From an uncultured bacterium (GTDB lineage: Bacteria > Bacillota_I > Bacilli_A > RF39 > UBA660): a stretch of DNA of 64,000 nt. Positions 12,367-48,165 of the stretch are shown here, in pieces. Location: positions 4,194 through 68,193 of the forward strand of contig CAMERI010000006.1 of the NCBI GenBank assembly GCA_945935525.1, written 5' to 3'. Each line of letters starts with the position of its first letter. The first letter of the stretch is position 1. The translations under genes were made by a program, and so were the position numbers. The notes beneath the pieces were generated by a model. It searched no databases. It saw only the letters and a list, made by a program, of their open reading frames with translations, and was not told the origin of the DNA.

Positions 12367-14019
12367 CTATATTTCTTGAATAACTGTTAATATCACTGGT
12401 TTACATTGAGTTTCTTTATATAAGTATTGTCCAACTATCTCACGTATTTCATTTCTTATTTTAACATAATCTGCATACTTATTAGAGAAAGTATTATTTT
12501 TAATAATCTCCATACTAAGCTTCTTAACTTCATTTATTACATCATTATTATCTTTAGAATATATAAATCCACGAGTAATTATTTCAGGCTCTATAACTAT
12601 TGATTTATCTTTCTTACTTAGTGTAGATGATATTACTACAAGTCCATTATTACTTAATAGTTCTCTATCTTTTAAGACTACATCTCCCACGTCTTCACTA
12701 AAGTTACCATCTATTAATATATCATCTACAAATACTCTTTCAAAGTTATCCTTAAGTTCACCATTTTCAAAAGTAACAACATCTCCATTTTCTTTAAGTA
12801 ATATATTTTCTTTTGGTATTCCTACACTATATGCAAGATTTCCATTTTGTACTTGATATCTATATTCACCTTTTATAGGCATATAGTATTTAGGATTAAA
12901 TAATTTAATAAGAAGCATTAAATCTTCACTAGATGCATGGTGACGTACACTCTTATCTTTAGGTATTTGTACTATATTAACACCCTTAATAGCTAAATCA
13001 TTAAGTATTCTTACAAGTAATTTTTCATAAGCATCATAACTTGGTTCAGCAAAACATACTGTATCAGTTTTTTCTAATGTAATAAATTTATCATGACCAT
13101 TTAATATTCTATTTATATTAGAATATGGTGTCTCTCTATCATTACTAATAAGTATAACTGTATTATCTTGTTTTAAATCAGTTAAATTACCTATCATATC
13201 TTCTTCTATATCTAAGTATCCATTCTTAGCACATAAAGATACTATATTATGTAACTCTTTACCCATTATTACTACTTTTCTATTCTTGCCTTTTAAAGAA
13301 TTAAATATTTCTTGCATAGTATAAATATGAAGTGGTAACACCGTAAATATAATTCTTCCTTTATTCTTATCAACAACGTTTTTAAAGAATCCCTCTAGCT
13401 TATGATTAGGACTAGTATGTCCCTTCTTTTCAGCAAACACACTTTCAGCCATTAAGCAAAGCACGCCTTGTTTACCAATATAAGCAAGTTTACCTAAATC
13501 CATGTCGTAGTAACCATTCATTGTTGGATCAATTACAAAGTCAGCCATATATATAACTGCTCCATCATCAGTATTAATTGCAAATCCTAATGTTTCTGGA
13601 CTACTATGTGTAACACTAAATGGGAATATACTTAAATTATTAGTTATATCTATCTTTCTATGTGCTTTAATAGTATGTAAATTCTTAATTTCTACTTTAT
13701 CTACTGAACATTCATATTTTATTATTTCACTTGTATAATTTGATGCATACACATTTAAATTAGGTAATGCTTTTAATAAATCAGTAAGTGCTCCCATATT
13801 CTCACGATGAGGATGGCTTATAAATAATCCAACTATTTCTTTTTCATGTTCTACTAAATATGAAAAATCAGGTATTACATAATCTACACCATACATTTTA
13901 TCAGGTGCATACTTCATACCACAATCAAAAATAAATAGATGTCCATCTACATTTACTGTATATAAATTCTTACCATTTTCGTTTAATCCACCTAAACTCA
14001 TTATATTAATTTTACTCAT
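12367..14019 (-). CDS. RNase J-family protein (metallo-beta-lactamase / beta-CASP) with degenerate metal-binding motifs (RNase J2-like)
   Basis: Aligns along its length with RNase J1 ('GLFISHPHRENMGAL' against 'GLFITHGHEDHIGGI'; 'MPIKGEYR' against 'MPIHGEYR'). Two zinc-ligand His/Asp positions are substituted. Confidence 0.65.
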   Translation of the reverse strand: MSKINIMSLGGLNENGKNLYTVNVDGHLFIFDCGMKYAPDKMYGVDYVIPDFSYLVEHEKEIVGLFISHPHRENMGALTDLLKALPNLNVYASNYTSEIIKYECSVDKVEIKNLHTIKAHRKIDITNNLSIFPFSVTHSSPETLGFAINTDDGAVIYMADFVIDPTMNGYYDMDLGKLAYIGKQGVLCLMAESVFAEKKGHTSPNHKLEGFFKNVVDKNKGRIIFTVLPLHIYTMQEIFNSLKGKNRKVVIMGKELHNIVSLCAKNGYLDIEEDMIGNLTDLKQDNTVILISNDRETPYSNINRILNGHDKFITLEKTDTVCFAEPSYDAYEKLLVRILNDLAIKGVNIVQIPKDKSVRHHASSEDLMLLIKLFNPKYYMPIKGEYRYQVQNGNLAYSVGIPKENILLKENGDVVTFENGELKDNFERVFVDDILIDGNFSEDVGDVVLKDRELLSNNGLVVISSTLSKKDKSIVIEPEIITRGFIYSKDNNDVINEVKKLSMEIIKNNTFSNKYADYVKIRNEIREIVGQYLYKETQCKPVILTVIQEI

Positions 14020-33586: not shown

Positions 33587-34978
33587 TTATATATTTTCTT
33601 TATATACTCTTAATTTAGTTACTAATAATAGACCAAATCCTATTACTAAGATTGAACCTAATGTTAAGAATAATGTAGTTCCAATTCCACCTGTTTCTGG
33701 TAATTGTGAACCAGTGTAGTTTAATACTTCTGCAGTAAATCTACTAAATGTATTATTAGAACCAACTTTAGAAATAATTACTTCAACTTTGCTAGTTAAC
33801 TTATTATAACCAGTTGGAGGAGTAACTTCTTCTAAATAATATGTATCTGCATCTAATCCTTCAATTGTTGCTTCACCAGCATTAATTAAAACATCATTTT
33901 CTTCAGTAGTTACGCGATAAACATTATTTTCTATTAATTCAACATAAATTATATTATTATTTTTGTCAAATAATTTAAATGTAGCTCCTTCTAATTTAGT
34001 TTTAGTTTCTCCATCTTTTTTGATAATGTTAAACTTATAAGTATAAGTTGTAGTTTTAACTTTATCAGTTGTTTTATTTTCACCATAAGCTAAATCTAAT
34101 TCGTTTGGATTACCATTTCCTTCAACTACAGCATTTTCATTTAATGTAGCAGTATAGTATACTTCAATTTTAGTATTTTTAGGTAATGTAACGATATATG
34201 AATCTTTGAATTCTACAACAAATGTATATCCATCTTTATTAGGAGTAACTGTATAGTTAGATGCATCAACAGTAGTATCTCCAGCTTTAACTTTAACTGA
34301 ATTTGCATTGAATGTAAGTCCTGCGCTCATTGTATCACGAAGTACATATTTAGTATAACCAGCACCAGTAGTGATAGTAGCTTTGAAATCAATTGTATCA
34401 CCAATAGTAGCATCATTAGTTTTTCCATAATCACCAGTTGAATCTTCTTTAACGTCCTTATCAACTTTTGGAGTTACTGTATTTTTTTCTTCAATAACAG
34501 CATTTGGATTAGTTGTAGTTAAGTTTAATAATGAACCAGTAGTAGTATCAACTAAATAGTATCCTAAAGGTAAGCCATCAAACTTAACAGTAGTGCTAGT
34601 AGCTTTTATAGGAGCTACAGTAGTAGTAACATTGTTTGCTTTAGCCCAAGCAAGTGCTGCTTTAGAGAATTCTACTACATCTGCACCAGTTTTCCATACA
34701 TAGTATGTAGCCCCAGTACCATTACTATTTTGTGCAACTAAGTACTTTTTGCCTTCAGCACTTGTAATGAATTCTTCAAAATTAGCATTAGCTCTATAGA
34801 TATAATGATTAGCATCATTGTCATAAGTTTCTAAATCTAATATTCTATAGATTGAATAAGTTTCGTCAACTACTGCTTTATTGATAGTAATTGAACCAGT
34901 TTCGTTAGCCGCATTTACTTGTACTAATGCAAATACAAAAGCAAATAACAACCCGAATAATTTCTTAATGTTTTTCAT
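33587..34978 (-). CDS. major (backbone) pilin with LPXTG sorting signal
   Basis: Pilin-motif-like 'LPKNTK'. E-box 'YYLEEVTPPTGY'. C-terminal 'LPETGG' + TM + 'KLRVYKENI'. Confidence 0.8.
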   Translation of the reverse strand: MKNIKKLFGLLFAFVFALVQVNAANETGSITINKAVVDETYSIYRILDLETYDNDANHYIYRANANFEEFITSAEGKKYLVAQNSNGTGATYYVWKTGADVVEFSKAALAWAKANNVTTTVAPIKATSTTVKFDGLPLGYYLVDTTTGSLLNLTTTNPNAVIEEKNTVTPKVDKDVKEDSTGDYGKTNDATIGDTIDFKATITTGAGYTKYVLRDTMSAGLTFNANSVKVKAGDTTVDASNYTVTPNKDGYTFVVEFKDSYIVTLPKNTKIEVYYTATLNENAVVEGNGNPNELDLAYGENKTTDKVKTTTYTYKFNIIKKDGETKTKLEGATFKLFDKNNNIIYVELIENNVYRVTTEENDVLINAGEATIEGLDADTYYLEEVTPPTGYNKLTSKVEVIISKVGSNNTFSRFTAEVLNYTGSQLPETGGIGTTLFLTLGSILVIGFGLLLVTKLRVYKENI

Positions 34979-35008
34979 TTTCTATTTCCTTTCCTTTCAA
35001 AATAAACA

Positions 35009-37267
35009 TTAATGTTTCATAGTCAGTCTTTTATTTAAAACATTAACTGATATATAAATAATAGGGACAACTAATAATAGTGAACCTATTATTAACAAAA
35101 TTAACATACCACTACTTCCAGTAGCTGGTAACTCATACCCAGAAACATTAGTAAATTTTATTTCCATACTATCTTTCAAAGTATAAGATTCTTGCTTTTC
35201 AGCATCATATATTTTTATCACTCCACCATTAACTTGATATTTAACAATGAAGCCATTTGTATCTAATTCTTTAACTACATAAGTAATACCATATGGTAAA
35301 TCTTTAATAGTTATTTGTTCTTTATCTTTTAATTTAATAGTTGCTTTTCCATTACTAAAAGTAACATTTTCAGTTGATTCTTTATTATTAATCTTTCTTA
35401 TAACAGTATAAGTACCTTCTAAATTACTTCCTTTATATTTAGCTTCTATTTCAAAAGTAAAATTTTGATTAGTATCTACTCCCTCAACAAATTTCTTAAT
35501 TGTTAAGTTTCTCTTTTTATATGTATTTATTACTTGTCCATCTTTCAAAGGACTAGTAGTAAATCCATAACTAACTTCTACATCATTAATATCTTTACTT
35601 ATTTCATGATATTCATCAGTAGATACTTCATGTATTTTATATTTATGACCAGAAGGTATCTTGTCAAAAGTAACTTTTCCATTTGAATCTGATGTACTAG
35701 TCATTTTAAAATCACTGGCCATATGTCTTCTTTCTTTTAAACAAGGACAATCATCTGAATGATATATTTCAAACTTAGTTCCTTTTAGTGGCTTATTTCC
35801 ATAATTAGTTAATTTATCAAACTCAAGTTTACCTAAAAAAGCTTTAACTTCTGGTCTTGGAAATTCTATTGTACCAGTTCTTGAACTCTTACTTGTTTTA
35901 ACTATATAATTTAACGTAGTAACACCATTTGTTTTATATGATGTACCTTCTACAAAATTACTTAATTCATTTTCAATCCTTACTCTATACTTTAATTTAT
36001 AAGTATATGTATTACCATTAACTTCAGGTGTTGAATTCTTTAAATCCCATTTTATCTTTTCATTTGTAGTATCAAAGGATGCAGTATTTGGATAACTATT
36101 AGATTTAGTAACTGAATCACTTAAAACATTATTTTCTCCATACATACCTATAAATTCAATATTTTTAGGTTGATCGCTTGAATTCATAGGATCTTCAGTA
36201 ACCCAAGTAGCCTCAGATAAAATCATAATTTGTTCGAATATTGATTCAAAGGCTTCTGTCATGGCATTAGGATCATTAACATCATAATAATGGCCTGAAC
36301 CTATTTTATTTCTTAACCAATTTTTATATGCATCAGCACTTGAAGCATCACCTATTTCATATGTCGTTGATGACCTATCTACTACAGCATGTGAAGCATT
36401 TGCAGTTTGATCAATATACTTTTGTATTGTTTGTGCTCCGACATCTACTCCAACAGAATATATTCCAATACCACTATTTTTAATAGTAGTGGCCATTTGC
36501 CTTGCTCTTATTGCTGCTTCATCACTATAACTAGTTCCATAAGAACAAGGTTTATTTAATACTCTATCTTCAAATCTATTACCATCATAAGTATCATATC
36601 CAGTATATTCATTTTCAATATATGTTGTTGGAAATCCATCTGACAAGAATAATATATATTTTTTACTTGCAGAAGAACCATCTAACATATCTTTTGCTCT
36701 TTTAAGACCTGCTTCAATATTAGTAAATCGTTTATTATGAGCTTCTGAAACTGTTACGATATTTTCTTTTATTTCAGTTGTAATTTTGTCTTTTAGAGAT
36801 TGTTTGTTGCTTTCATTACAATTTTGTAAATTAAATATTTCATATGAATCTGAATTAAATGCAACAAATCCAAGCTTTCTATCAATACTACTATTTTGAG
36901 AACGAGCCGCAAAACTATCTATAAAACTATTACTTGCTTCTTTTGCAGCATCTAATCTCGTCTTTCCTGCACCTAGTGTTTGAGTCATAGTATTTGAAAT
37001 ATCCATAACTATTACTACTGCTAAATCAGGGTCTACTGCTATATTTTTTGTTTGAACGGTTAAAATAATATCAAAATAATTTTCTAACTCTGATGGGTAA
37101 ATATTTTTACTAACACTTACACCATCTGCTTCATTAATATTACTTCCACCTTCTTTAGTAATTTGCCTTTGATTATTATCATTTGCCTCTGCAAAAATAT
37201 TTATTATTGGATTAATAAACATTAAAAGAGCAAATAATATTGCAAATATTTTATTTATCTTTTTCAT
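35009..37267 (-). CDS. pilus tip adhesin with vWA (MIDAS) domain and CnaB-type domains, LPXTG-anchored
   Basis: 'VMDISNTM' is a MIDAS motif. The CnaB-like segment 'GTKFEIYHSDD...GKVTFDKIPSGHKYKIHEVSTDEYH' and the C-terminal 'LPATGS' sorting signal are present. Start taken at 'MKKINKIF', which has a GGGGGA SD. Confidence 0.75.
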   Translation of the reverse strand: MKKINKIFAILFALLMFINPIINIFAEANDNNQRQITKEGGSNINEADGVSVSKNIYPSELENYFDIILTVQTKNIAVDPDLAVVIVMDISNTMTQTLGAGKTRLDAAKEASNSFIDSFAARSQNSSIDRKLGFVAFNSDSYEIFNLQNCNESNKQSLKDKITTEIKENIVTVSEAHNKRFTNIEAGLKRAKDMLDGSSASKKYILFLSDGFPTTYIENEYTGYDTYDGNRFEDRVLNKPCSYGTSYSDEAAIRARQMATTIKNSGIGIYSVGVDVGAQTIQKYIDQTANASHAVVDRSSTTYEIGDASSADAYKNWLRNKIGSGHYYDVNDPNAMTEAFESIFEQIMILSEATWVTEDPMNSSDQPKNIEFIGMYGENNVLSDSVTKSNSYPNTASFDTTNEKIKWDLKNSTPEVNGNTYTYKLKYRVRIENELSNFVEGTSYKTNGVTTLNYIVKTSKSSRTGTIEFPRPEVKAFLGKLEFDKLTNYGNKPLKGTKFEIYHSDDCPCLKERRHMASDFKMTSTSDSNGKVTFDKIPSGHKYKIHEVSTDEYHEISKDINDVEVSYGFTTSPLKDGQVINTYKKRNLTIKKFVEGVDTNQNFTFEIEAKYKGSNLEGTYTVIRKINNKESTENVTFSNGKATIKLKDKEQITIKDLPYGITYVVKELDTNGFIVKYQVNGGVIKIYDAEKQESYTLKDSMEIKFTNVSGYELPATGSSGMLILLIIGSLLLVVPIIYISVNVLNKRLTMKH

Positions 37268-37296
37268 ACCATATCCCCCATATAAGAAAAATAAAA

Positions 37297-37917
37297 TTAT
37301 ATTTTTTTGATTTTCTTTATTGGCCAAACTTTAAATATAACTTTACCAATTATATTTTCTTTTGTGATTGTACCAATCATTTCACTACGTGAATCAGTTA
37401 ATACATCTCTTTCATCACTTAGTACGAATATACTATTATCACTTACTTGCACTGGATATTTAATATCACTTTCACCCTTTAAAAATTCTTTAACGTAATT
37501 TTCTTCTAATTTTTCTCCATTAACATAAACAATTCCATCTTTATCTATATTAACAAAATCACCTTGTACCCCAATTACTCTTTTCACCAATATTTTATTT
37601 CCATAATAGAATGCAACTACATCACCAGTTTTAAAGCTACTACTTTTAATAGTTAAGACTATATCTCCATCTTCTACTAAAGGTTTCATACTTGAATCAG
37701 TTATCTCTATAACTGGCATAAATAATGTAGCCCCAACTGATGCAACTGCAACTATTATTATTAACACATATATAGTACTTCTAAGTAGTCTAGAAAAACT
37801 ATGCCTATAATTTTCTCTATGTAATTCTTTTTCCAAATTTTCAACAGTTAGATCTTTATATGTAAGTTTCTTTTGTGTCTTTTTTCTTTTTTTTAACATA
37901 TCTCTAAACTTATGCAT
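37297..37917 (-). CDS. sipW: SipW-type (archaeal/ER-like) signal peptidase I
   Basis: 'DSSMKPLVEDGDIV' is the S26 catalytic Ser box. 206 aa. Located at the head of the pilus locus. Confidence 0.7.
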   Translation of the reverse strand: MHKFRDMLKKRKKTQKKLTYKDLTVENLEKELHRENYRHSFSRLLRSTIYVLIIIVAVASVGATLFMPVIEITDSSMKPLVEDGDIVLTIKSSSFKTGDVVAFYYGNKILVKRVIGVQGDFVNIDKDGIVYVNGEKLEENYVKEFLKGESDIKYPVQVSDNSIFVLSDERDVLTDSRSEMIGTITKENIIGKVIFKVWPIKKIKKI

Positions 37918-38411
37918 TATTTTTTCCTTTTATTACTGCCAGTTTTCTTTTTACTTTTTGAAGGATTTTTACCCGTAACTTTATTTACTTTAGAACTGGA
38001 ATTATTATTTGCCTTTAACAAAGCTTCTTCTTTCTTCTTATATTTTTCTTCAAGTTCTAACTCCTTCTTTTTCAACTTTTCAACTGTTTCCTTAATAAGT
38101 TTATTTCTTTGCAGCGTAGTTTCTCTTTTTAAAGATGCTTCCATTTTCTTACAATTATCTTTAATATTTTCATAATACTGATCAACAGCTTTTTGAGCAC
38201 TTTCAAATACTTCATTTAGCTTTAATGATGCCTCAGCAATTGAACCACTCTCTTTAATTTTTATTCTTTTAGAATCTAATTCATCCTGTACGCTTTTAAG
38301 TTCAAGCTCTAGCTCTTGAATTCTTTTTGCTTGTTCTAACATAAGTTCTAATAATTCTTTACGTTTTAATCTTTTTAATTCTTTTTGTTCCATAACCCAC
38401 CTATCATACAT
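37917..38411 (-). CDS. Lys/Glu-rich coiled-coil protein, hypothetical
   Basis: Continuous heptad-like 'ELKRLKRKELLELMLEQAKRIQELELELKSVQDELD'. Stop overlaps the sipW start. Confidence 0.4.
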   Translation of the reverse strand: MYDRWVMEQKELKRLKRKELLELMLEQAKRIQELELELKSVQDELDSKRIKIKESGSIAEASLKLNEVFESAQKAVDQYYENIKDNCKKMEASLKRETTLQRNKLIKETVEKLKKKELELEEKYKKKEEALLKANNNSSSKVNKVTGKNPSKSKKKTGSNKRKK

Positions 38412-38564
38412 AGAAAAAATTAATTTTTTATTAAGAAAAACATCACATATTGTTCTTTTGCAGTTCTATATACTATCACAAAAAAAATTTTTGTCAATAA
38501 TTTAATATTAAAAATATAATATTAATTAATAATATGATATGAAAATTAAATTTTACACAAAAAA

Positions 38565-38592
38565 AAGATATTACTTAAATATAATATCTTTT
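38565..38592 (-). terminator. rho-independent terminator after the PBP-like gene
   Basis: AAGATATTA...TAATATCTT hairpin plus a U-run on the minus strand. Confidence 0.45.
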
Positions 38593-38599
38593 ATAAATT

Positions 38600-39733
38600 T
38601 TATTGATTATTTTTTAAGTAATCTATAACTTCATTATAAACATCCATTCTAAGTCCTGAAGTTACACTTGTTATTTCTTGAGGAATTCCTTTAATAGTAC
38701 CACTTATCTTACTAACATCATAATTTCCTCCAGTAGTACCTACTCTAAATCCATATCTTTCCCAACTTCTTTGAGCAACTTCTTTATCATTAAATGCTTC
38801 TAATAGTTTCTTACCATTATCATCAAAAGCAGCAATGCAATGACTATTCCATATAGTTGGTGTTGGATATAATATTCTAATCTTATCTTTTACTTGATTC
38901 CATCCATCAGGATTTGCATTAGCAAAATCTATAACACTCTTTTCATAATCAACTATCATAGGTTTAGCACCCATACCAGTTTTTAAGAACATTGAGAACA
39001 AATCAGCAGGTGTATTATTCATATATCCACTCTTTAAATAGAATCCTTTTAATTTAGGAAGTGCTTCGTTAATACTAACAGAGTTAACATCTCCACCTGC
39101 CATAATAGATAGTAATAATCCATAATATGTAGCACCCGGTGAAGAAGTAACTGGGTCAGTAGATCCAATATTTACTTGACCATAAATATTAAGTCCAAGT
39201 TCATTCCATTTTTTACCTTGTAATATATAATTAATTAACTTATTCATATCAGTTATATAATAAACATCATTTTGAACAGTAACAATTTTTTCCTTAATTA
39301 AAGCATCAGTTACTTCTGCCCAACTATATATAACTATAGGTGTATTAAGAACTAAATCTCCAGCAACTACATAATCACGAGCAGCTTCTCCTGTTTTAGG
39401 ACTAGTCTTAAAGTAATCATAATATCTTTGATCAGAGAAGAACGCTAAATCATACTTACTTCCATCTTTACGTACTAAACTCTCTTTAACAGTTTTACCA
39501 TTACTCCAAGAATCTTGTACAAATTTAAATTTATACTTTTTAGCAAATATCTTATTTATTTCTTCATCAGCAAGTAAATCCTCTTTACCACCACCAACAG
39601 CTCCATATATCTCTGTTACTGAATTAGTAAAATCTCCATTCTTAATAAGAACAACTACTACTATAATTACTACTAATAGAACTGCACCTATTATTTTTGA
39701 AATCATACCTTCTTTTTTAAACATTTTTTTCAC
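38600..39733 (-). CDS. membrane-anchored periplasmic-binding-protein-like (PBP/SBP-like) protein
   Basis: N-terminal TM, then a domain that looks paralogous to the N-terminal half of the 40324-41895 protein. Confidence 0.4.
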   Translation of the reverse strand: MKKMFKKEGMISKIIGAVLLVVIIVVVVLIKNGDFTNSVTEIYGAVGGGKEDLLADEEINKIFAKKYKFKFVQDSWSNGKTVKESLVRKDGSKYDLAFFSDQRYYDYFKTSPKTGEAARDYVVAGDLVLNTPIVIYSWAEVTDALIKEKIVTVQNDVYYITDMNKLINYILQGKKWNELGLNIYGQVNIGSTDPVTSSPGATYYGLLLSIMAGGDVNSVSINEALPKLKGFYLKSGYMNNTPADLFSMFLKTGMGAKPMIVDYEKSVIDFANANPDGWNQVKDKIRILYPTPTIWNSHCIAAFDDNGKKLLEAFNDKEVAQRSWERYGFRVGTTGGNYDVSKISGTIKGIPQEITSVTSGLRMDVYNEVIDYLKNNQ

Positions 39734-40322
39734 TTCCTTTTAACTCATCTTCATCAATATCTAAATCAGATGTTCTTTCAAAGACTTTCATCTCAAAATC
39801 TAATTCTTGATCTTTAGATTTAACTATTTCTTCTAATAACCTATCACATTCATGTTCTACTTCTTTAATATACACAGACATCTTAAGTATAAGTTTATTT
39901 TCAACAAATGTTTTTTCTTTTTTACTTTCAGCTTCTATATATTTAGTAACTATTCTAGTTGTAAATGGTAAATAATAATCTAAGAAGTTATATATTTTAG
40001 TGGCATTTCTAGGTTTAGTTTCTAAATGCTTTGTTATCTTTTGTGATACATTTACTATTTTAGCAAGTTTTTCTTTTATAGTTTTATCTTTTATTTTTTC
40101 TTTATAATCATTTAGTTTTGACATTTCGAAGTTATATCTAGCTAGTGCTTCTCTATCATATACTCTTATATCTTGTGATTTAAATAAGAATATACCAGCT
40201 ATATATATAACTACTGTTAGTATTAATGCAATCCATAAATAAAAGTCCATTACCACATATAGTATTATAAATGCTATTCCAGAAGTTATAGCTGACATTA
40301 AATATCTCTTTTGTATATTCAT
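39717..40322 (-). CDS. XpaC-like (5-bromo-4-chloroindolyl phosphate hydrolysis protein family) membrane protein
   Basis: Two N-terminal TMs plus a charged helical C-terminus. About 200 aa, the same architecture as B. subtilis XpaC. Confidence 0.4.
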   Translation of the reverse strand: MNIQKRYLMSAITSGIAFIILYVVMDFYLWIALILTVVIYIAGIFLFKSQDIRVYDREALARYNFEMSKLNDYKEKIKDKTIKEKLAKIVNVSQKITKHLETKPRNATKIYNFLDYYLPFTTRIVTKYIEAESKKEKTFVENKLILKMSVYIKEVEHECDRLLEEIVKSKDQELDFEMKVFERTSDLDIDEDELKGSEKNV

Positions 40323-40323
40323 A

Positions 40324-41895
40324 TTAATTATAACTCCTTACTTCTTTAAATGCTCTTATTAAGCTTGTTCTTCCATCAAATACTTTAGCATTCGTAAGAT
40401 TAGCTATATTAGTAAGTTCTGTTTCATCACTAGCTCCAAACATAATGCTATATATTGGAATTTTTTCATCTAATATTTGATAATAATTAACTAAACTAGT
40501 ATAACTTCCTGTATTAGATAATCCATCTGTCATAAGTATTACTGATTTTGTATAATCATCATTATATTTTTTTAATTCTTTAAGTGCTTCTACTGAACAT
40601 CCATATATATTAGTTCCACCTGTAGGTCTTGCACTACTTATTTTAGTTATTAATTCTGAAGTATCATTTCCTTTAGAATACCATGTACTTCTATTTGAAG
40701 TATCAAAAGGAATAACTATTATATTATCATTCTTTGAAAATTGTAATCTTTCAGTACTAGCTTTTTCACTATCTAATATAAATTCCATAGCATCTTTAAG
40801 TTGTGTAACTCCATTACCTGACATACTACCAGAATAATCTAAACAAAATGCTACAGCAGCAGGTTTTCTAAGTTCAGCTATGTAAAGACCAATTGCTTCA
40901 TTCATAACCTTTTTAGAAGGATATTTAAGAGGTATTAAGTATTTATTAGTATCAATACCATAAGAAGTCTTAAATACATCTTTATCAGCATTAGAATTAG
41001 TTCCACCATACCAAGTTCTCTTACCAAGTTTTTCTAAATCCTTTTGAGTATCTAAACTTAATAAATATGATTGTAATATATTAAACTTATCTAACTTCTC
41101 TTGACCTCTATCAACATAAGCAAATGGACTATCATTAATAGCAACACCATCAGTAGGATATAATAAATATAATGTATCTTTTCCACTACTTTCAAGTTGT
41201 TTATTAATTCTTATCAAAGATGACTCAGTAGCTATAACAGCTTCATAATCATTACTTTTTAAAAACATATCTTCTAAGAATGAAGTACTTCCAGATACTC
41301 TTTCTACTCCACTAAATAGTGATTTTAAATTAGATATTAATGTTTCATCTTTAATCATCTCACTAGTTAATATTTCAGGACTACCAGCAAGTGAATTTAA
41401 GAATCCTAAATAAGCTGTAAGACCAGTATTAGTCTTAGTAACAGAATTCATTACATATTTAAGTTTCTTACTCTTAACAGCATTTAAAATATCACTATTT
41501 TTAATTTCATTATTAACAAAACCTAATTCTTGAGCCTTACTTTTCTTAACACCCATAACTACTGGATTAATACTAATAGATTTTGAATTAGTTACTTTAA
41601 CACCATTAAGCATATATAACCATATTGAATTACTTAACCATACCGCATCATACTTACTACTATCTTCTTCTAAAATATCTAATGCTTCTAAATCATCAGC
41701 ATACTCTATATAAACACTTATGTGTTCTTTATCACCATAACTAATTAATTCATCCATAAAATCCTTATTATCTGGGTTAGATAAAATATAAAAACTTCTC
41801 TTACCACCCTCAGAATATTCATCAAGAACAAAAGTCTTAACACATATAATTGCAAATATCATACCAACTACTACAATTAAAATTTTTTCTTTCAT
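40324..41895 (-). CDS. membrane-anchored protein with an N-terminal PBP-like domain and a C-terminal vWA domain
   Basis: MIDAS 'CLDYSGSMSG' and downstream 'TGGTNIY', 'MTDGLSN'. N-terminal TM. Confidence 0.55.
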   Translation of the reverse strand: MKEKILIVVVGMIFAIICVKTFVLDEYSEGGKRSFYILSNPDNKDFMDELISYGDKEHISVYIEYADDLEALDILEEDSSKYDAVWLSNSIWLYMLNGVKVTNSKSISINPVVMGVKKSKAQELGFVNNEIKNSDILNAVKSKKLKYVMNSVTKTNTGLTAYLGFLNSLAGSPEILTSEMIKDETLISNLKSLFSGVERVSGSTSFLEDMFLKSNDYEAVIATESSLIRINKQLESSGKDTLYLLYPTDGVAINDSPFAYVDRGQEKLDKFNILQSYLLSLDTQKDLEKLGKRTWYGGTNSNADKDVFKTSYGIDTNKYLIPLKYPSKKVMNEAIGLYIAELRKPAAVAFCLDYSGSMSGNGVTQLKDAMEFILDSEKASTERLQFSKNDNIIVIPFDTSNRSTWYSKGNDTSELITKISSARPTGGTNIYGCSVEALKELKKYNDDYTKSVILMTDGLSNTGSYTSLVNYYQILDEKIPIYSIMFGASDETELTNIANLTNAKVFDGRTSLIRAFKEVRSYN

Positions 41896-43674: not shown

Positions 43675-43748
43675 AAAATCTATCCTCCTGTATAAATATT
43701 ATAACAAACATTACAATCTTTATAAAGAAAAATGTGCATTTAAGCACA

Positions 43749-45017
43749 CTATTTATTTCTTTTTATAATATCATTTCTATTTTCAATAAGTTTAATAATA
43801 TTATCAATTTCTTCATTACTGCTTTTATCATTAAGTTTACTTATTAATGAACTAATATTATCTTCAATGTCTTTTACTATTTCATTACTAACTGGATCAG
43901 AGTATTTAAGTTTATCAATTAATTTATTTTTATATTCACTATTTAATTTTGATATATTATTAATTTTGAATATCATTTCATCAATAAATTTAGTTTTATT
44001 TTTTGTATTAGTATCTAATTTTTTATTTCTTTTATTAATGAACATTATTGTTACTACTGCTGTAAAATATATTAAATTGCTAAATATTGTATAAGTTTGA
44101 ATACCACTTCCAAAAGTATGGCTATGATTGTTATTATAATTCGCATAGAATGTAATTCCTAAAAATATAAATGTTAAAACATATATAGGAGTGCTTACTG
44201 CTATTTCTTCAGGAGTTCTATCTTTAACAATAAGAATTACAATAGTTGTTAAAACAAATGCTACTACCGCAGAAACTACACAGTTTATATAATTGTTATG
44301 ATTCCATGGAGTAATAAAATTATCAGATATATTATTTATTGTATCAGGCAAATAAACTTCTTTATTATGACTGCCATCAAAACTTACTGATGTTACTTTC
44401 ATGCCATTAACAGTTGTTGGAATAATTAAAGCACCACCATTACCCTTATAATGAGTTAATTCAACATTTCCATCTTTAACATTATATTCAAATGGAAATT
44501 CAATATAATTAAAATCAACAACTTCTGAATCATTTAATATATTAACATTTAATTCATTATTATTTTTAAGTTCTTCGCAATATTTACCTCTATAACAATT
44601 GATAGTAATATTTTTAAAATTCTCTACTGGTAAATAGTTTATGTTATCTGAAATATATATATTTTTAACTTTATCATTTTTAAATGAATCACTTATTGAT
44701 GTTACTTTAACTCCATCATATTCATATGGAATAACTAATGTTTCACTTAATCCTTTATATTCAGTTATTTCTAAAGTATCATTAACTTTATTATATGAAA
44801 AACTTTCTATATTTTTTGTATATTTATCTTTTTCACTATCAGCAATCTTTTCATAATCAATTCCATTCTTTTTTGCATATTCAAGAACATAATCATTATT
44901 GCTAAATTTAATTTTAATATCTCCATAATATTTTTCATTAGTAAGTGAGAATATCAAAGCAAGTGTTATTATAAATGAAATTGCTATAAAAATTATCTTT
45001 TTCTTCATATTACTCAC
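43749..45017 (-). CDS. membrane protein: BspA-type LRR ectodomain, 3 TM, cytoplasmic coiled-coil tail
   Basis: Repeats 'LVIPYEYDGVKVTSISDSF' and 'LIIPTTVNGMKVTSVSFDG' (LRR_5-like). C-terminal K/N/E-rich coiled coil. Overlaps the upstream gene by 8 nt. Confidence 0.5.
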   Translation of the reverse strand: MSNMKKKIIFIAISFIITLALIFSLTNEKYYGDIKIKFSNNDYVLEYAKKNGIDYEKIADSEKDKYTKNIESFSYNKVNDTLEITEYKGLSETLVIPYEYDGVKVTSISDSFKNDKVKNIYISDNINYLPVENFKNITINCYRGKYCEELKNNNELNVNILNDSEVVDFNYIEFPFEYNVKDGNVELTHYKGNGGALIIPTTVNGMKVTSVSFDGSHNKEVYLPDTINNISDNFITPWNHNNYINCVVSAVVAFVLTTIVILIVKDRTPEEIAVSTPIYVLTFIFLGITFYANYNNNHSHTFGSGIQTYTIFSNLIYFTAVVTIMFINKRNKKLDTNTKNKTKFIDEMIFKINNISKLNSEYKNKLIDKLKYSDPVSNEIVKDIEDNISSLISKLNDKSSNEEIDNIIKLIENRNDIIKRNK

Positions 45018-46164
45018 CTACTTTCTTACCACAATATGGACAAAATACTGCATCATTTGGTAACTTTTTGCCACAAATACTACACACACTACCAGTCATA
45101 TTATTACCACATTTAATACAAAATTTAGTACCACTAGCATTTTCATATCCACAATTACTACATATTGTTGAATTATCATTTTTAGTAAAAGCACCAACTA
45201 CATTTTTATTAACTGTATCACTTACTTTTGATGAAACACTGCTCATAACGCCAAGTCCTACTCCCATATTAGTAAATTGACCAACTGCATTATTAGAAGC
45301 CATTTTATCAAGAACGTTATATTGTCTTTCATCTTGATAACTATATCCTTCAGTTTCTCTTTTATGTGCTTTTGCTTCACTATCAATAATTGTACTTTTA
45401 GCCTTAGTTTCTTCATCAATTAATGTTACTTTTTGTCTTAATTGAGCTTCTGCTACTGCGACACTTTGTTTAAAATATAATTCTTTAAATTCAAGATATT
45501 GCTTATCATCTTCAGGTTTCATAACAGTAGTTACAAAGAACTTTTCAAGTTCAATACCAAATTCTTCAAAATCGCTAGAAAGTAGATTTTTAAGTTCTTC
45601 ACTAAACTCATTTAAATGACTATCAATTTCAAATATACTTATTTCATTTTTATTAATAATTTTAGCAATATAAGATTTAACTTTAACAAGTATAAATGAG
45701 CTAAAGAATTCATCAATATTTTCCCCGTCAAAATTATCTTTAATACCAACTAATTTTAATAATAGTTTTCTTGAATCAACTACTTTAAATCTCATTTCTC
45801 CACAAGCACCTATTTGTATAGGAAACTTATATGTAGGTTCTAAAAATTCAATTTTACTACTAGTACCCCACCTTGATGATTTAATAGACTTATCTATAAA
45901 GTATACTTCACAATGAAATGGACTTTTACCACCTGTTGGTAAATTAATTAAATTTCTAAGTAGTGGTATGTTATTTGTTTCAAGGGTATATCTACCTGAA
46001 CCAAATAAATCTAATGCTTTTCCATCCTTATAAAGTATAGCTTCCTGTGATTCATGTACAATTAGTTGACTACTTGTATTAAAATCAGTTTTAGGATACT
46101 TCCATACAATATTTTCATCATCTTTCTCTTTCTTTATTATTTCAAATAAAGCCATAATATTCAC
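45010..46164 (-). CDS. YdjI-like SPFH/Band-7-family protein with two C-terminal zinc ribbons
   Basis: 'FHCEVYFIDKSIKSSRWGTSSKIEF' resembles the YdjI core. C-terminus 'CSNCGYEN...CIKCGNN...CSICGKK...CPYCGKK'. Confidence 0.5.
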   Translation of the reverse strand: MNIMALFEIIKKEKDDENIVWKYPKTDFNTSSQLIVHESQEAILYKDGKALDLFGSGRYTLETNNIPLLRNLINLPTGGKSPFHCEVYFIDKSIKSSRWGTSSKIEFLEPTYKFPIQIGACGEMRFKVVDSRKLLLKLVGIKDNFDGENIDEFFSSFILVKVKSYIAKIINKNEISIFEIDSHLNEFSEELKNLLSSDFEEFGIELEKFFVTTVMKPEDDKQYLEFKELYFKQSVAVAEAQLRQKVTLIDEETKAKSTIIDSEAKAHKRETEGYSYQDERQYNVLDKMASNNAVGQFTNMGVGLGVMSSVSSKVSDTVNKNVVGAFTKNDNSTICSNCGYENASGTKFCIKCGNNMTGSVCSICGKKLPNDAVFCPYCGKKVGE

Positions 46165-46179
46165 CTTTCCTTTTCTATA

Positions 46180-48015
46180 TTATTCCTTCTCTAATACTTC
46201 AACATAATCTTTATTATCAAATTTACCACATATCCAGCCATTAACTTTAAATCCTGTTTCTATATTATACCAGATTTCACATAATCCATCTGAACCATTT
46301 CTACTATCAAGAACATCATATATTTCATCTTTTCTAACAATTCCTTTTTCATAACTATAAACATCATCATCATTTCTTATATTAATATAATCAGCAATTA
46401 CTTTAATTTGATCTATTGATGTATTTCTATCATTTGATTGAGTAGGAAGTGGTGAAGTATTTATAATAACACTAATTATTCCTATTATAAATGTTAATAT
46501 GTAGAAGAATGTATTTAATATTTTTTTATCTTTTGGTATATAGTTTTCAGTAAACTCTTTATTGTTTTTTAATATTTCTTCTTTTTCTTCTTTAGTAACA
46601 ATAAGTGGTACTTCTTTAATTTCCCAAGAAGGCTTCATAAGTAATAGTGCAATATTAAGTAAAATTATAATATATGTAATAAATGTAGCTGCATTACCAA
46701 AGTTATGAAGTTTTAAAATAAATAATAATTCTAAAAACACATTAACTATATACATATATTTAGATATTTTATTTGATTTTCTACTAGCAAATCCTAGAAA
46801 AAATGCAATCGCAGTAATTATACCAACTAAGAATTGATATGAAAAAAAATTTTTATCTTCACTAGCTATACCAAAAGTTTCTCCTAAATAATTATAATAG
46901 CCACGGCCGCACAAACATATCATATATACAGCCATCATAGCAGATAACACAAATGTAATTACGATATATGAAGTTGAACACTTATTTCTTTTTTCTATAA
47001 CATCATATCTTTTAGATAATTCTTCTTGTTTTTCTCTTTCCTCTTCAAGCATCATTTGTTTGAATTTCTGATACATATCACTATCTATATCAGTAGATTT
47101 TTTATTAATGATTTTTCCTACTGCTGTAATTAAATCTTGCATAGAACCAACTTTATCTATGCATAGTGCTTGTAACATTGAAAACTCTTCTGGTAATTCA
47201 TAAGCATCCATCTTACTATAAACTGGAATCAATACTTTTTTCTTTTTATTTTTTATTAAGTCTAAGTATCTACTCCATTCATTTTTAACCCATACTGAAT
47301 TTAAATTATCAGCATTAGTGCCTACTACTAACATAATTTTTGAACTATTAAGTGCTGAAAAGATATATGGTTCATATTCTTCACCAAGTTTATCAGCAAG
47401 AGTAATTCTAGCAAAGAAAACTTTATAATTTAAATCAGTTAATTTATTATATATATCCTGAGCAATAACACTATCGGGAGTTCTATCTCCATTTTTATCT
47501 CCTTCTTTATAACAAATAAAGATATCATAATCTTCTTCATTATTAGAAATTTCAAGTGCTTTCTTTTGAATATTACTAATAGTTTTTGCTTCTTCTTTAT
47601 ATATTTTTAAAGCATCTCCATAGGCTTTGCTAATTATTATTTTATAATCAGGATCAGTTAAAACAGATTCATACTTTGTTCTATGACAAGTAATCATTTT
47701 CTTTTTAGTTTTTGGATCATCTACATATTCAACACCATATCTACAAAGTATTAGTCCCCAATGAGCTTCTAACTGATTTTCATCTATTTCAAGTATAGTT
47801 TCATATACACCATATGCTTTATCAAATTCATTTGATAGTCTTAAATTATTAGCCCTATTATATAAATTTAAAAGTTTTTCATTATCAACACTTGGTAGAG
47901 TCATAGTGCTTTTACAATATAAACATTTACCTATATTACTACCTTCAACTACTTCTATATCTCCACCACACATCTTACATTTAAAAACCATTGTTACTGC
48001 CTCCATGCTAAACAT
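46180..48015 (-). CDS. Zn-ribbon / TPR-like / TIR-domain / 4-TM / SH3b-like protein
   Basis: N-terminal 'CKMCGG...CLYCK'. TIR blocks 'YDIFICYKEGD', 'LTDLNYKVFFAR', 'IFSALNSSKIMLVVGT' and 'SVWVKNEWSRY'. Four hydrophobic helices. The C-terminal 'IWYNIETGFKVNGWICGKF' is SH3b-like. Confidence 0.6.
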   Translation of the reverse strand: MFSMEAVTMVFKCKMCGGDIEVVEGSNIGKCLYCKSTMTLPSVDNEKLLNLYNRANNLRLSNEFDKAYGVYETILEIDENQLEAHWGLILCRYGVEYVDDPKTKKKMITCHRTKYESVLTDPDYKIIISKAYGDALKIYKEEAKTISNIQKKALEISNNEEDYDIFICYKEGDKNGDRTPDSVIAQDIYNKLTDLNYKVFFARITLADKLGEEYEPYIFSALNSSKIMLVVGTNADNLNSVWVKNEWSRYLDLIKNKKKKVLIPVYSKMDAYELPEEFSMLQALCIDKVGSMQDLITAVGKIINKKSTDIDSDMYQKFKQMMLEEEREKQEELSKRYDVIEKRNKCSTSYIVITFVLSAMMAVYMICLCGRGYYNYLGETFGIASEDKNFFSYQFLVGIITAIAFFLGFASRKSNKISKYMYIVNVFLELLFILKLHNFGNAATFITYIIILLNIALLLMKPSWEIKEVPLIVTKEEKEEILKNNKEFTENYIPKDKKILNTFFYILTFIIGIISVIINTSPLPTQSNDRNTSIDQIKVIADYINIRNDDDVYSYEKGIVRKDEIYDVLDSRNGSDGLCEIWYNIETGFKVNGWICGKFDNKDYVEVLEKE

Positions 48016-48165
48016 ATTTTATCATAGATATATTTATACTTCAATTATAACCAAATAAATTTAGAAATAAAATATTTTTACATTAAAAAGAAAATAAAAT
48101 ACTTTTAGCTTATTCAGGTAATATCCAAAAATAGATTACAATTTTCATTAATAATTTATCGCATA

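Follow-up and report, generated by a model that had tools for sequence, protein, structure and literature searches.

Encoded between rpoC and ffh in an uncultured bacterium of the RF39 lineage is a three-gene operon whose first product joins a TIR domain to a membrane segment and a C-terminal SH3b-fold domain. The operon lies on the reverse strand of a 64,000-nucleotide stretch of contig CAMERI010000006.1, referred to here as the window; all coordinates are those of the window unless a locus is named, and every feature of the operon given below is on the reverse strand. Gene A (46180–47991, 603 residues) is followed by gene B (45010–46155, 381 residues), encoding an SPFH protein, and gene C (43749–45008, 419 residues), encoding a protein with four transmembrane (TM) helices; no names for the three are given in the source databases. 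We propose, with a probability of about one half, that gene A is the receptor and enzyme subunit of a three-gene membrane surveillance system with an enzymatic TIR output, possibly directed against phages.

Domain architecture of gene A

Zn ribbon, TPR-like, TIR, membrane and SH3b segments had been read in a single chain in the initial annotation, and this architecture is borne out by Pfam matches, an AlphaFold2 (AF2) model and Foldseek comparisons. The model was built from a 46-row alignment of orthologues and trimmed N-terminal modules (predicted local distance difference test score, pLDDT, of 82), and replaced one made from the single sequence (pLDDT of 37). From its N terminus the chain comprises three short strands around both CxxC pairs, three helices, a β-hairpin and a long helix; these are followed by an alternating β/α domain, a charged helix of some length, five hydrophobic helices, likewise long, and a β-rich C-terminal domain.

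At the N terminus is the Zn ribbon (47893–47991), formed by the three short strands and the CxxC..CxxC cysteines C5, C8, C23 and C26 (603-residue numbering, used here unless stated otherwise), which are invariant in 59 of 59 gene A relatives. The adjoining helical region (47539–47892) contains a TPR-like hairpin (residues ~44–80), a conserved β-hairpin with the motif YGVEYVDDP...TCHR, and the long helix; W78, G86, Y89 and D92 are invariant in this region among the 59 relatives. Weak TPR_2 and TPR_1 matches, the family profile and the AF2 model all point to the TPR-like unit. Residues 44–80 of the profile match one repeat unit of consensus TPR proteins, and the profile, when compared with PDB sequences, retrieved TPR designs only and no TIR chains. 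The unit is a single hairpin, scoring 15.5 bits against a Pfam cut-off of 27, and not an array of at least three hairpins.

The central domain (47104–47538) matches TIR_2 (PF13676) with 40.8 bits against a gathering cut-off of 28 (E = 3.7e-10); all 59 relatives match this profile as well. Its predicted fold is that of TIR domains, with Foldseek matches in the PDB to L7, Roq1, RPS4, SARM1, AbTir, SPARTA and MyD88 (probability of 1.0 for L7, RPS4, SARM1 and AbTir; TM-score of 0.73 and root-mean-square deviation, r.m.s.d., of 3.8 for AbTir). Between this domain and the first TM helix is a charged helical linker with a short strand (46975–47103; helix 304–326 and strand 329–338 in the AF2 model).

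The C-terminal domain (residues 513–603, 46183–46455) structurally resembles the SH3b domains of the phiSM101 endolysin (4krt_B, r.m.s.d. of 2.5 over 77 columns), PlySb (9kz1) and BT_1314 (4r0k). Gene A itself has no Pfam match to SH3_3 (PF08239) at E ≤ 1, whereas P0124 and P0125, two orthologues aligned over this domain, do match, as do 8 of the 59 relatives. The SH3b-like domain originally proposed stands as a fold and in the orthologues, the query sequence being too divergent for SH3_3.

The predicted TIR active site

In a phmmer comparison, the gene A segment SVWVKNEW aligns with KQWPAREL of TcpB/BtpA, which places WVKNE (47278–47292) over WPARE, that is, over BtpA W213 and E217. These two BtpA residues form the WxxxE motif, with E217 the essential catalytic residue, and the NAD pocket is bounded on its other side by the BB-loop (PMC7188309). 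The alignment derives from this single-sequence match to TcpB together with the Foldseek results. The candidate catalytic residue of gene A is therefore E238 (E246 in the 611-residue numbering of the longer reading frame described below), which is invariant in 59 of 59 diverse relatives; the tryptophan is kept in at least 90%.

A conserved catalytic-type glutamate had been anticipated, and one is present, at another position than first suggested. The segment DKLGEEYEPYIF (47359–47394), earlier put forward as the catalytic site, aligns with the BtpA BB-loop (KVGDSLRRKI) and for this reason is predicted to line the pocket rather than to provide the catalytic residue; G203, E207 and P208 within it are invariant. 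Judged from its sequence, the TIR domain of gene A carries the WxxxE motif characteristic of enzymes that cleave nicotinamide adenine dinucleotide (NAD+), and is predicted to be of that type.

The domain could instead be a non-enzymatic module for homotypic or heterotypic assembly, as in the adaptors of animal Toll-like receptors, organizing a complex with the SPFH protein and using the glutamate structurally. The TIR domains of MyD88, MAL and TRAM are all among its Foldseek matches, and BtpA E217A still assembles into ordered structures (PMC7188309). Conservation of both the tryptophan and the glutamate of WxxxE, and of the BB-loop glycine and proline, across thousands of divergent sequences argues against a purely structural role, as does the fact that the closest bacterial and plant matches are the NAD-cleaving TIR domains AbTir, L7, RPS4, SARM1 and SPARTA; we regard this alternative as improbable.

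Membrane topology

Spanning residues 340–362, 382–402, 404–430, 437–451 and 494–512 (46456–46974) are five TM helices, not the four counted initially, as indicated by AF2, hydropathy and 15 homologues. A lysine-rich cytoplasmic loop separates TM4 and TM5. Hydropathy resolves four strong segments and one weaker segment in gene A, and all five exceed the threshold in several orthologues. Five hydrophobic segments are found in all 15 orthologues and paralogues examined (mean Kyte–Doolittle values of 0.9–2.9, and at least 1.1 in all segments but one). The density of lysine and arginine across these homologues alternates from 0.20 before TM1 (predicted inside) to 0.06 in loop 1 (outside), 0.45 in loop 2 (inside), 0.09 in loop 3 (outside) and 0.26 in loop 4 (inside).

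Owing to the five helices and this positive-inside pattern, gene A is predicted to be oriented with its N terminus in and C terminus out, with the TIR domain cytoplasmic and the SH3b domain extracytoplasmic. Placement of the two domains on opposite sides of the membrane, on which the initial proposal of a coupled sensor and effector had been staked, is borne out. Four helices would put both on the same side, so the earlier count contradicted the idea it accompanied.

Operon partners

Gene B starts 24 nt after the stop codon of gene A, and gene C starts 1 nt after that of gene B; from these gaps, the three genes are predicted to be co-transcribed. The gene B product is a putatively cytosolic SPFH protein (Band_7_1, E = 2e-38) that contains a Gly/Ser-rich stretch and ends in a double Zn ribbon (DZR, E = 1.7e-10; also Zn_Ribbon_1), and its translation contains no visible hydrophobic segment. 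Gene C, as defined by alignment and an iterative hidden Markov model (HMM), encodes an N-terminal TM helix, an extracellular insertion of ~220 residues between TM1 and TM2 that carries two BspA-LRR-like repeats, three further TM helices and, in the cytoplasm, a helical tail in which the motif KYSDPVS is invariant. No match to gene C was found in Pfam, PADLOC or the PDB, and neither B nor C has relatives by sequence among solved structures.

The co-occurrence of the three genes extends well beyond the window. Orthologues of gene A at 45–51% identity are followed by B and then C despite unrelated flanks, which include a second TIR paralogue and a deacetylase gene (L006), genes for a helix–turn–helix regulator, HAD and PPDK (L008), and MobC and relaxase genes (L010); the same order is found in L011 and in all genomic loci anchored on C (below) that have enough flank, and in L005 two A paralogues lie 5′ of a truncated B. 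A genome scan anchored on C gave 17 loci in metagenome-assembled genomes (MAGs), whose chromosomes are ~1.5 Mb and whose labels are uncultured Clostridium sp., Bacilli, Mycoplasmatota or Tenericutes. In 14 of the 17, one to three A genes come first, followed by B and C. L018 and L020 keep B–C, plus the tail of A where the contig ends, L023 begins inside C, and L028 has only a C-like fragment; L027 has the rearranged order B–C–A–A.

Head-containing loci from metagenomes numbered 79, of which 26 have at least 3 kb of flank on each side. An SPFH homologue (34–55% identity) lies within 4 kb in 22 of these 26, and head and SPFH homologue share a strand in 48 of 48 cases. With an iterated HMM seeded by the C-terminal half of C, a protein of ~230 residues with four TM helices and a YSDP tail was found directly 3′ of B in most loci. 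The gene orders observed were ABC (27), BCA (13), ABCA (7), AABC (5), BCAA (4) and BCAAAA (2), each a single B–C pair, with C always directly behind B, and one to four A genes. The canonical form is seen in L037, from a Firmicute of higher G+C content, which encodes an SPFH protein with four Zn ribbons, a 234-residue C and then an 882-residue protein combining Zn ribbon, TIR, TPR, TM and DUF6273 regions; none of the three has a significant PADLOC match.

These loci bear on the initial view of gene A as a self-contained sensor-effector, in which one chain, needing no partners, would couple a cell-wall signal sensed by SH3b to a TIR NADase. The chain does contain sensor, membrane and enzyme parts in the required opposite-side topology. 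That view has little chance of being right, however: a B–C pair lies downstream of or beside A in nearly every locus with sufficient flank, several A paralogues share one such pair, and the conserved, indel-free N-terminal 150 residues of A would be left without a role.

Gene start and expression signals

The reading frame flagged initially (46180–48015, 611 residues) is present in the window, and its ninth codon, M9, is the start of gene A, because GGAGG (48000–48004) lies 8 nt 5′ of the ATG at 47991 and homologues have 603–607 residues. No Shine–Dalgarno sequence could be read upstream of the ATG at 48015. In the 191-nt gap 3′ of rpoC is a weak promoter-like site (TTGAAG, a 17-nt spacer and TAAAAT, with TG; 48016–48044); the count of such sites in the consensus scan does not exceed the shuffled expectation in this AT-rich DNA (G+C content of ~26% throughout the window). 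Right after the gene C stop is a terminator-like hairpin with a T-run (43731–43750), from a scan that gave three sites against 0.5 expected.

A conserved head with variable tails

An exhaustive search, clustered at 50% identity, gave 6,676 representatives at E ≤ 0.001 and 3,807 at E ≤ 1e-30. Nearly all match only residues 10–305 of gene A, at 45–60% identity, within proteins of 420–1,640 residues in total. The Zn-ribbon/TIR head comprises 300–301 residues in nearly every sequence, essentially without insertions or deletions, and is 55–60% identical. Attached to it in the 59 relatives are TPR (39 of 59), DUF6273 (15), SH3_3 (8), LRR_5 (6), LRR_8 (6) and RCC1 (5) tails, and Sel1, MORN and FNIP repeats are further tail types. 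The conserved head accepts many interchangeable tails, of which SH3b is one. Hydrophobic segments above the threshold used are absent from about one-third of representatives, single in another third and multiple in the rest.

Tails of the SH3b, LRR, DUF6273 and RCC1 kinds are typical of Firmicute surface proteins, and variation between strains is greatest in the extracellular parts, as might be expected if these proteins served adhesion to host or neighbouring cells and the head were incidental. It is, however, the cytoplasmic head that is most conserved and defines the family, and the third of representatives that lack a hydrophobic segment carry TPR tails, which makes a surface-interaction role very improbable.

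Within or beside cassettes at L074 (888–2030) and 11 other loci are proteins with an A-like Zn ribbon and TPR region, no TIR domain, and a following coiled coil. These TIR-less proteins suggest that the Zn-ribbon/TPR unit is able to act apart from the TIR domain. A 148-residue C-like fragment at L028 (8007–8453), with no A or B within 8 kb, lies on a complete 1.54-Mb MAG chromosome and is possibly the remnant of a lost cassette. The A head was found in only 2 of 2.9 million viral contigs, L108 and L109 (IMG/VR); both have an SPFH gene nearby and may be prophage-adjacent or misbinned host DNA.

Exchange and divergence of the cassette

Compared with the window at the nucleotide level, loci L001, L013, L016 and L031 are 87–89% identical in rpoC and ffh, 97–99% in the A head and 96–99% in B. 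As the head and B are more similar than the genes flanking them, species-level lineages seem to have swapped the cassette recently, with its chromosomal site unchanged. Gene C behaves differently, with DNA identities of 81–83% (69–72% for the protein) in L013, L014, L016 and L031; in L014 it is divergent even though the rpoC and ffh flanks are 97% identical to those of the window, and its cytoplasmic tail is near-identical there. Synonymous divergence (dS) is 0.37–1.08 in the extracellular and TM2–TM4 parts of C, against ~0.1 in A and B, which indicates that gene C is a mosaic, hypervariable allele.

The ratio of non-synonymous to synonymous divergence (dN/dS) is 0.04–0.12 for the head and 0.03–0.08 for the SPFH protein, and 0.5–1.3 for the TM and SH3b parts of A. 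Clear positive selection was not shown, values of ~1.3–1.4 occurring only in short, low-divergence segments. The cytoplasmic machinery is frozen in these comparisons, and the membrane and outside parts are variable.

Genomic neighbourhood

The 141 nearest or inserted neighbours of cassettes at 73 loci were surveyed with PADLOC and Pfam. PADLOC matches include DISARM DrmB (five, with E down to 2e-78) and PDC-S31 (four), followed by AbiEii, PDC-S04, WYL, mad8, HerA, Cas3c, PDC-S02 and DpdF; Pfam identifies resolvase, transposase, Fic and DUF6076 proteins alongside housekeeping genes. We take this defence-island signal as suggestive and claim no quantitative enrichment.

Some neighbours recur. 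Directly upstream of the cassette at L097 (8265–9854), and likewise at L091, L093, L101 and related loci, is DISARM DrmB (PADLOC E = 2e-74), with methyltransferase, mad3/mad8 and UvrD-like matches farther out. In L010 (347–5944), an orthologous A–B–C set in which C is shortened to 286–290 residues lies directly downstream of the MobC and relaxase genes, apparently on a mobilizable element. At the 5′ edge of the cassette in L069 (6398–6682) and 19 other loci is an open reading frame of ~94 residues, often after a DUF6076 gene (six loci); its product is ribbon–helix–helix-like without a Pfam match, and may be a dedicated regulator.

Other genes are inserted in, or adjoin, individual cassettes. 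A protein of 111–223 residues (mostly 154–223) with an Rx4H-like motif is inserted within the cassettes of L080 (2946–3410) and six other loci; it could be a HEPN protein on a weak Csx1/Csm6 match (E = 0.002). Between C and A in L037 (8871–9995) is a 374-residue gene without a family match, for which a SIR2-like identity found no support from Pfam or PADLOC, and 3′ of A in the same locus is a DUF2971/PDC-S31 candidate defence gene (12733–13617).

In the window itself, the operon has rpoB–rpoC on its 5′ side and ffh on its 3′ side. Beyond ffh (33587–41895) are genes for a VWA protein, an XpaC-like protein (PF10112), two unassigned proteins and a signal peptidase, and a pilus locus of the SpaA type that includes an LPXTG anchor. 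Since signal peptidase and LPXTG-anchored pilus genes are present, the host organism has a cell wall, though related MAGs are labelled Mycoplasmatota or Tenericutes.

A proposed mechanism and its weighing

TIR domains with the WxxxE glutamate cleave NAD+, or make NAD-derived signals, upon self-association, and SPFH proteins are oligomeric, membrane-associated scaffolds. In B. subtilis (Bacillus subtilis), the soluble SPFH protein YdjI, which has a C-terminal Zn finger, is recruited by two membrane proteins, YdjG, with an N-terminal Zn ribbon, and YdjH. By analogy, gene C, and perhaps also gene A, would anchor an SPFH assembly at the membrane, and the near-invariant head of A would dock on this shared hub. 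The variable tail, here an SH3b domain on the cell wall or peptidoglycan, would sense an envelope-associated cue; the cue would alter TIR self-association, with NAD+ cleavage or an NAD-derived signal in the cytoplasm as the outcome. The most likely biological role would be anti-phage defence of the abortive-infection type or surveillance of envelope damage.

The hub arrangement is supported by the conserved, indel-free head, the varied tails, the one to four A genes per B–C pair, and the low dN/dS of the head and the SPFH protein against that of the TM and SH3b parts. A role as a conflict system is supported by exchange of the cassette between lineages, the relaxase beside L010 and the defence genes among its neighbours.

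Several observations weigh against this proposal. The operon occupies a housekeeping setting, between rpoC and ffh in a genome of ~1.5 Mb, and defence genes are not usually under purifying selection as strong as that on the head and B. A distal control, at least 4.5 kb away from cassettes, also yields PADLOC matches, in part to generic methyltransferase and UvrD models. Among PADLOC models none fits B or C, and the single match of A, to PDC-S66, is weak (E = 9e-6) and due to its TIR domain; profile scans did not recognize a SIR2, SLOG, Macro, CARF or SAVED effector in B or C. Gene order is the basis on which A, B and C are predicted to interact physically.

Some of these points would also suit a module of envelope stress or cell-wall homeostasis of the Psp/YdjGHI kind, in which the SPFH hub would monitor the membrane or peptidoglycan and the TIR domain would make a regulatory signal or adjust NAD pools. 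B has the architecture of YdjI, and YdjG, YdjH and YdjI provide a precedent in envelope stress and peptidoglycan synthesis; the selection on the head and B, the cell-wall-binding fold of SH3b, and a place among core genes (rpoBC, ffh and signal peptidase) in a small genome fit as well. No pspA is adjacent, however, the cassette is mobile between lineages and found beside a relaxase, and its neighbours often include defence genes; tandem arrays, in which up to four A paralogues carry diversifying tails, also fit varied ligands better than a single cue. On balance, homeostasis is the less likely purpose, although the strongest of the alternatives considered, and we infer that defence or surveillance is to be favoured over envelope-stress signalling.

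Comparison with known systems

With the NAD+-cleaving TIR proteins BtpA/TcpB, AbTir, Thoeris ThsB and SPARTA TIR-APAZ, gene A shares the TIR fold, the WxxxE motif, the BB-loop and the TIR_2 match. Unlike in those proteins, its TIR domain is preceded by a Zn-ribbon/TPR-like N-terminal domain and followed by a polytopic membrane segment that leads to a domain outside, and its partners are SPFH and four-TM proteins in place of ThsA, Argonaute or any other known partner. Membership in Thoeris was considered and rejected: the neighbours are an SPFH and Zn-ribbon protein and a four-TM protein, without SIR2, SLOG or Macro matches, and the one link, a weak ThcB4 match (E = 9e-4), is far below the cut-off. 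Small operons of membrane proteins with a TIR protein are also seen in Rst_2TM_1TM_TIR and the PADLOC candidate PDC-S66, but there TIR and TM regions are on separate proteins, and A outside its TIR domain matches no PADLOC model. Residues 513–603 have the fold of the SH3b domains of phage endolysins and lysostaphin-type enzymes, here joined to a signalling-type membrane protein and not to a peptidoglycan hydrolase.

A counterpart in operon composition is PspA–YdjGHI (SamGHI) of B. subtilis, where the Band-7/SPFH protein is likewise soluble, has a low-complexity stretch and a Zn finger at its C terminus, and is encoded with two membrane proteins, one of which begins with a Zn ribbon. Gene B has all the features of the YdjI type (Band_7_1, soluble, C-terminal Zn finger), the comparison being with the described architecture of YdjI; A and C are likened to YdjG and YdjH by description, not by sequence. 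The two systems differ in gene order and in the TIR domain carried here by the Zn-ribbon membrane protein, and, in the window and orthologous loci alike, the operon is without a PspA-type neighbour.

TIR, SPFH and SH3b are each known singly; their combination, as a transmembrane TIR receptor family with an obligate SPFH/four-TM hub and a conserved Zn-ribbon/TPR head, appears to be a new form of TIR-based system. No description of such a system was found in the full-text literature searched, which covered SPFH with TIR, flotillin with TIR and NADase, SPFH with anti-phage defence, and DUF6273. To our knowledge, the TIR systems of bacteria act in the cytosol, as sensors or effectors. A transmembrane family would bring TIR biology to the cell envelope, its recognition domains facing outward and varying fast, its catalytic head strictly conserved and its SPFH partner obligate, and would give SPFH/flotillin-like proteins a role in conflict or surveillance. 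With 3,807 clusters at the stricter threshold, the family is very large, and it is concentrated in gut Firmicutes, including uncultured Bacilli with small genomes; it could therefore be a major unrecognized determinant of phage–host or envelope-stress biology in the microbiome.

Like animal Toll-like and IL-1 receptors, members of the family have a ligand-binding domain outside the cell (LRR in some), joined through a membrane span to a cytoplasmic TIR domain, and form paralogue arrays with varied ectodomains. They differ in their inverted polarity, with the TIR domain N-terminal, in retaining catalytic-type residues and, for gene A, in having five TM helices; the likeness is one of analogy, with no evidence for common descent of the whole architecture. 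A broader and more tentative suggestion, which we hold with less confidence than the role proposed for gene A, is that A–B–C loci represent a large class of Firmicute TIR systems, so far undescribed, that are embedded in the membrane and serve immunity or surveillance, with Toll-like-receptor-like arrays whose sensor tails are swappable and whose catalytic cytoplasmic heads plug through the invariant Zn-ribbon/TPR region into a shared, flotillin-like SPFH hub. Such a class would be a bacterial counterpart of TIR receptors that signal from membrane microdomains.

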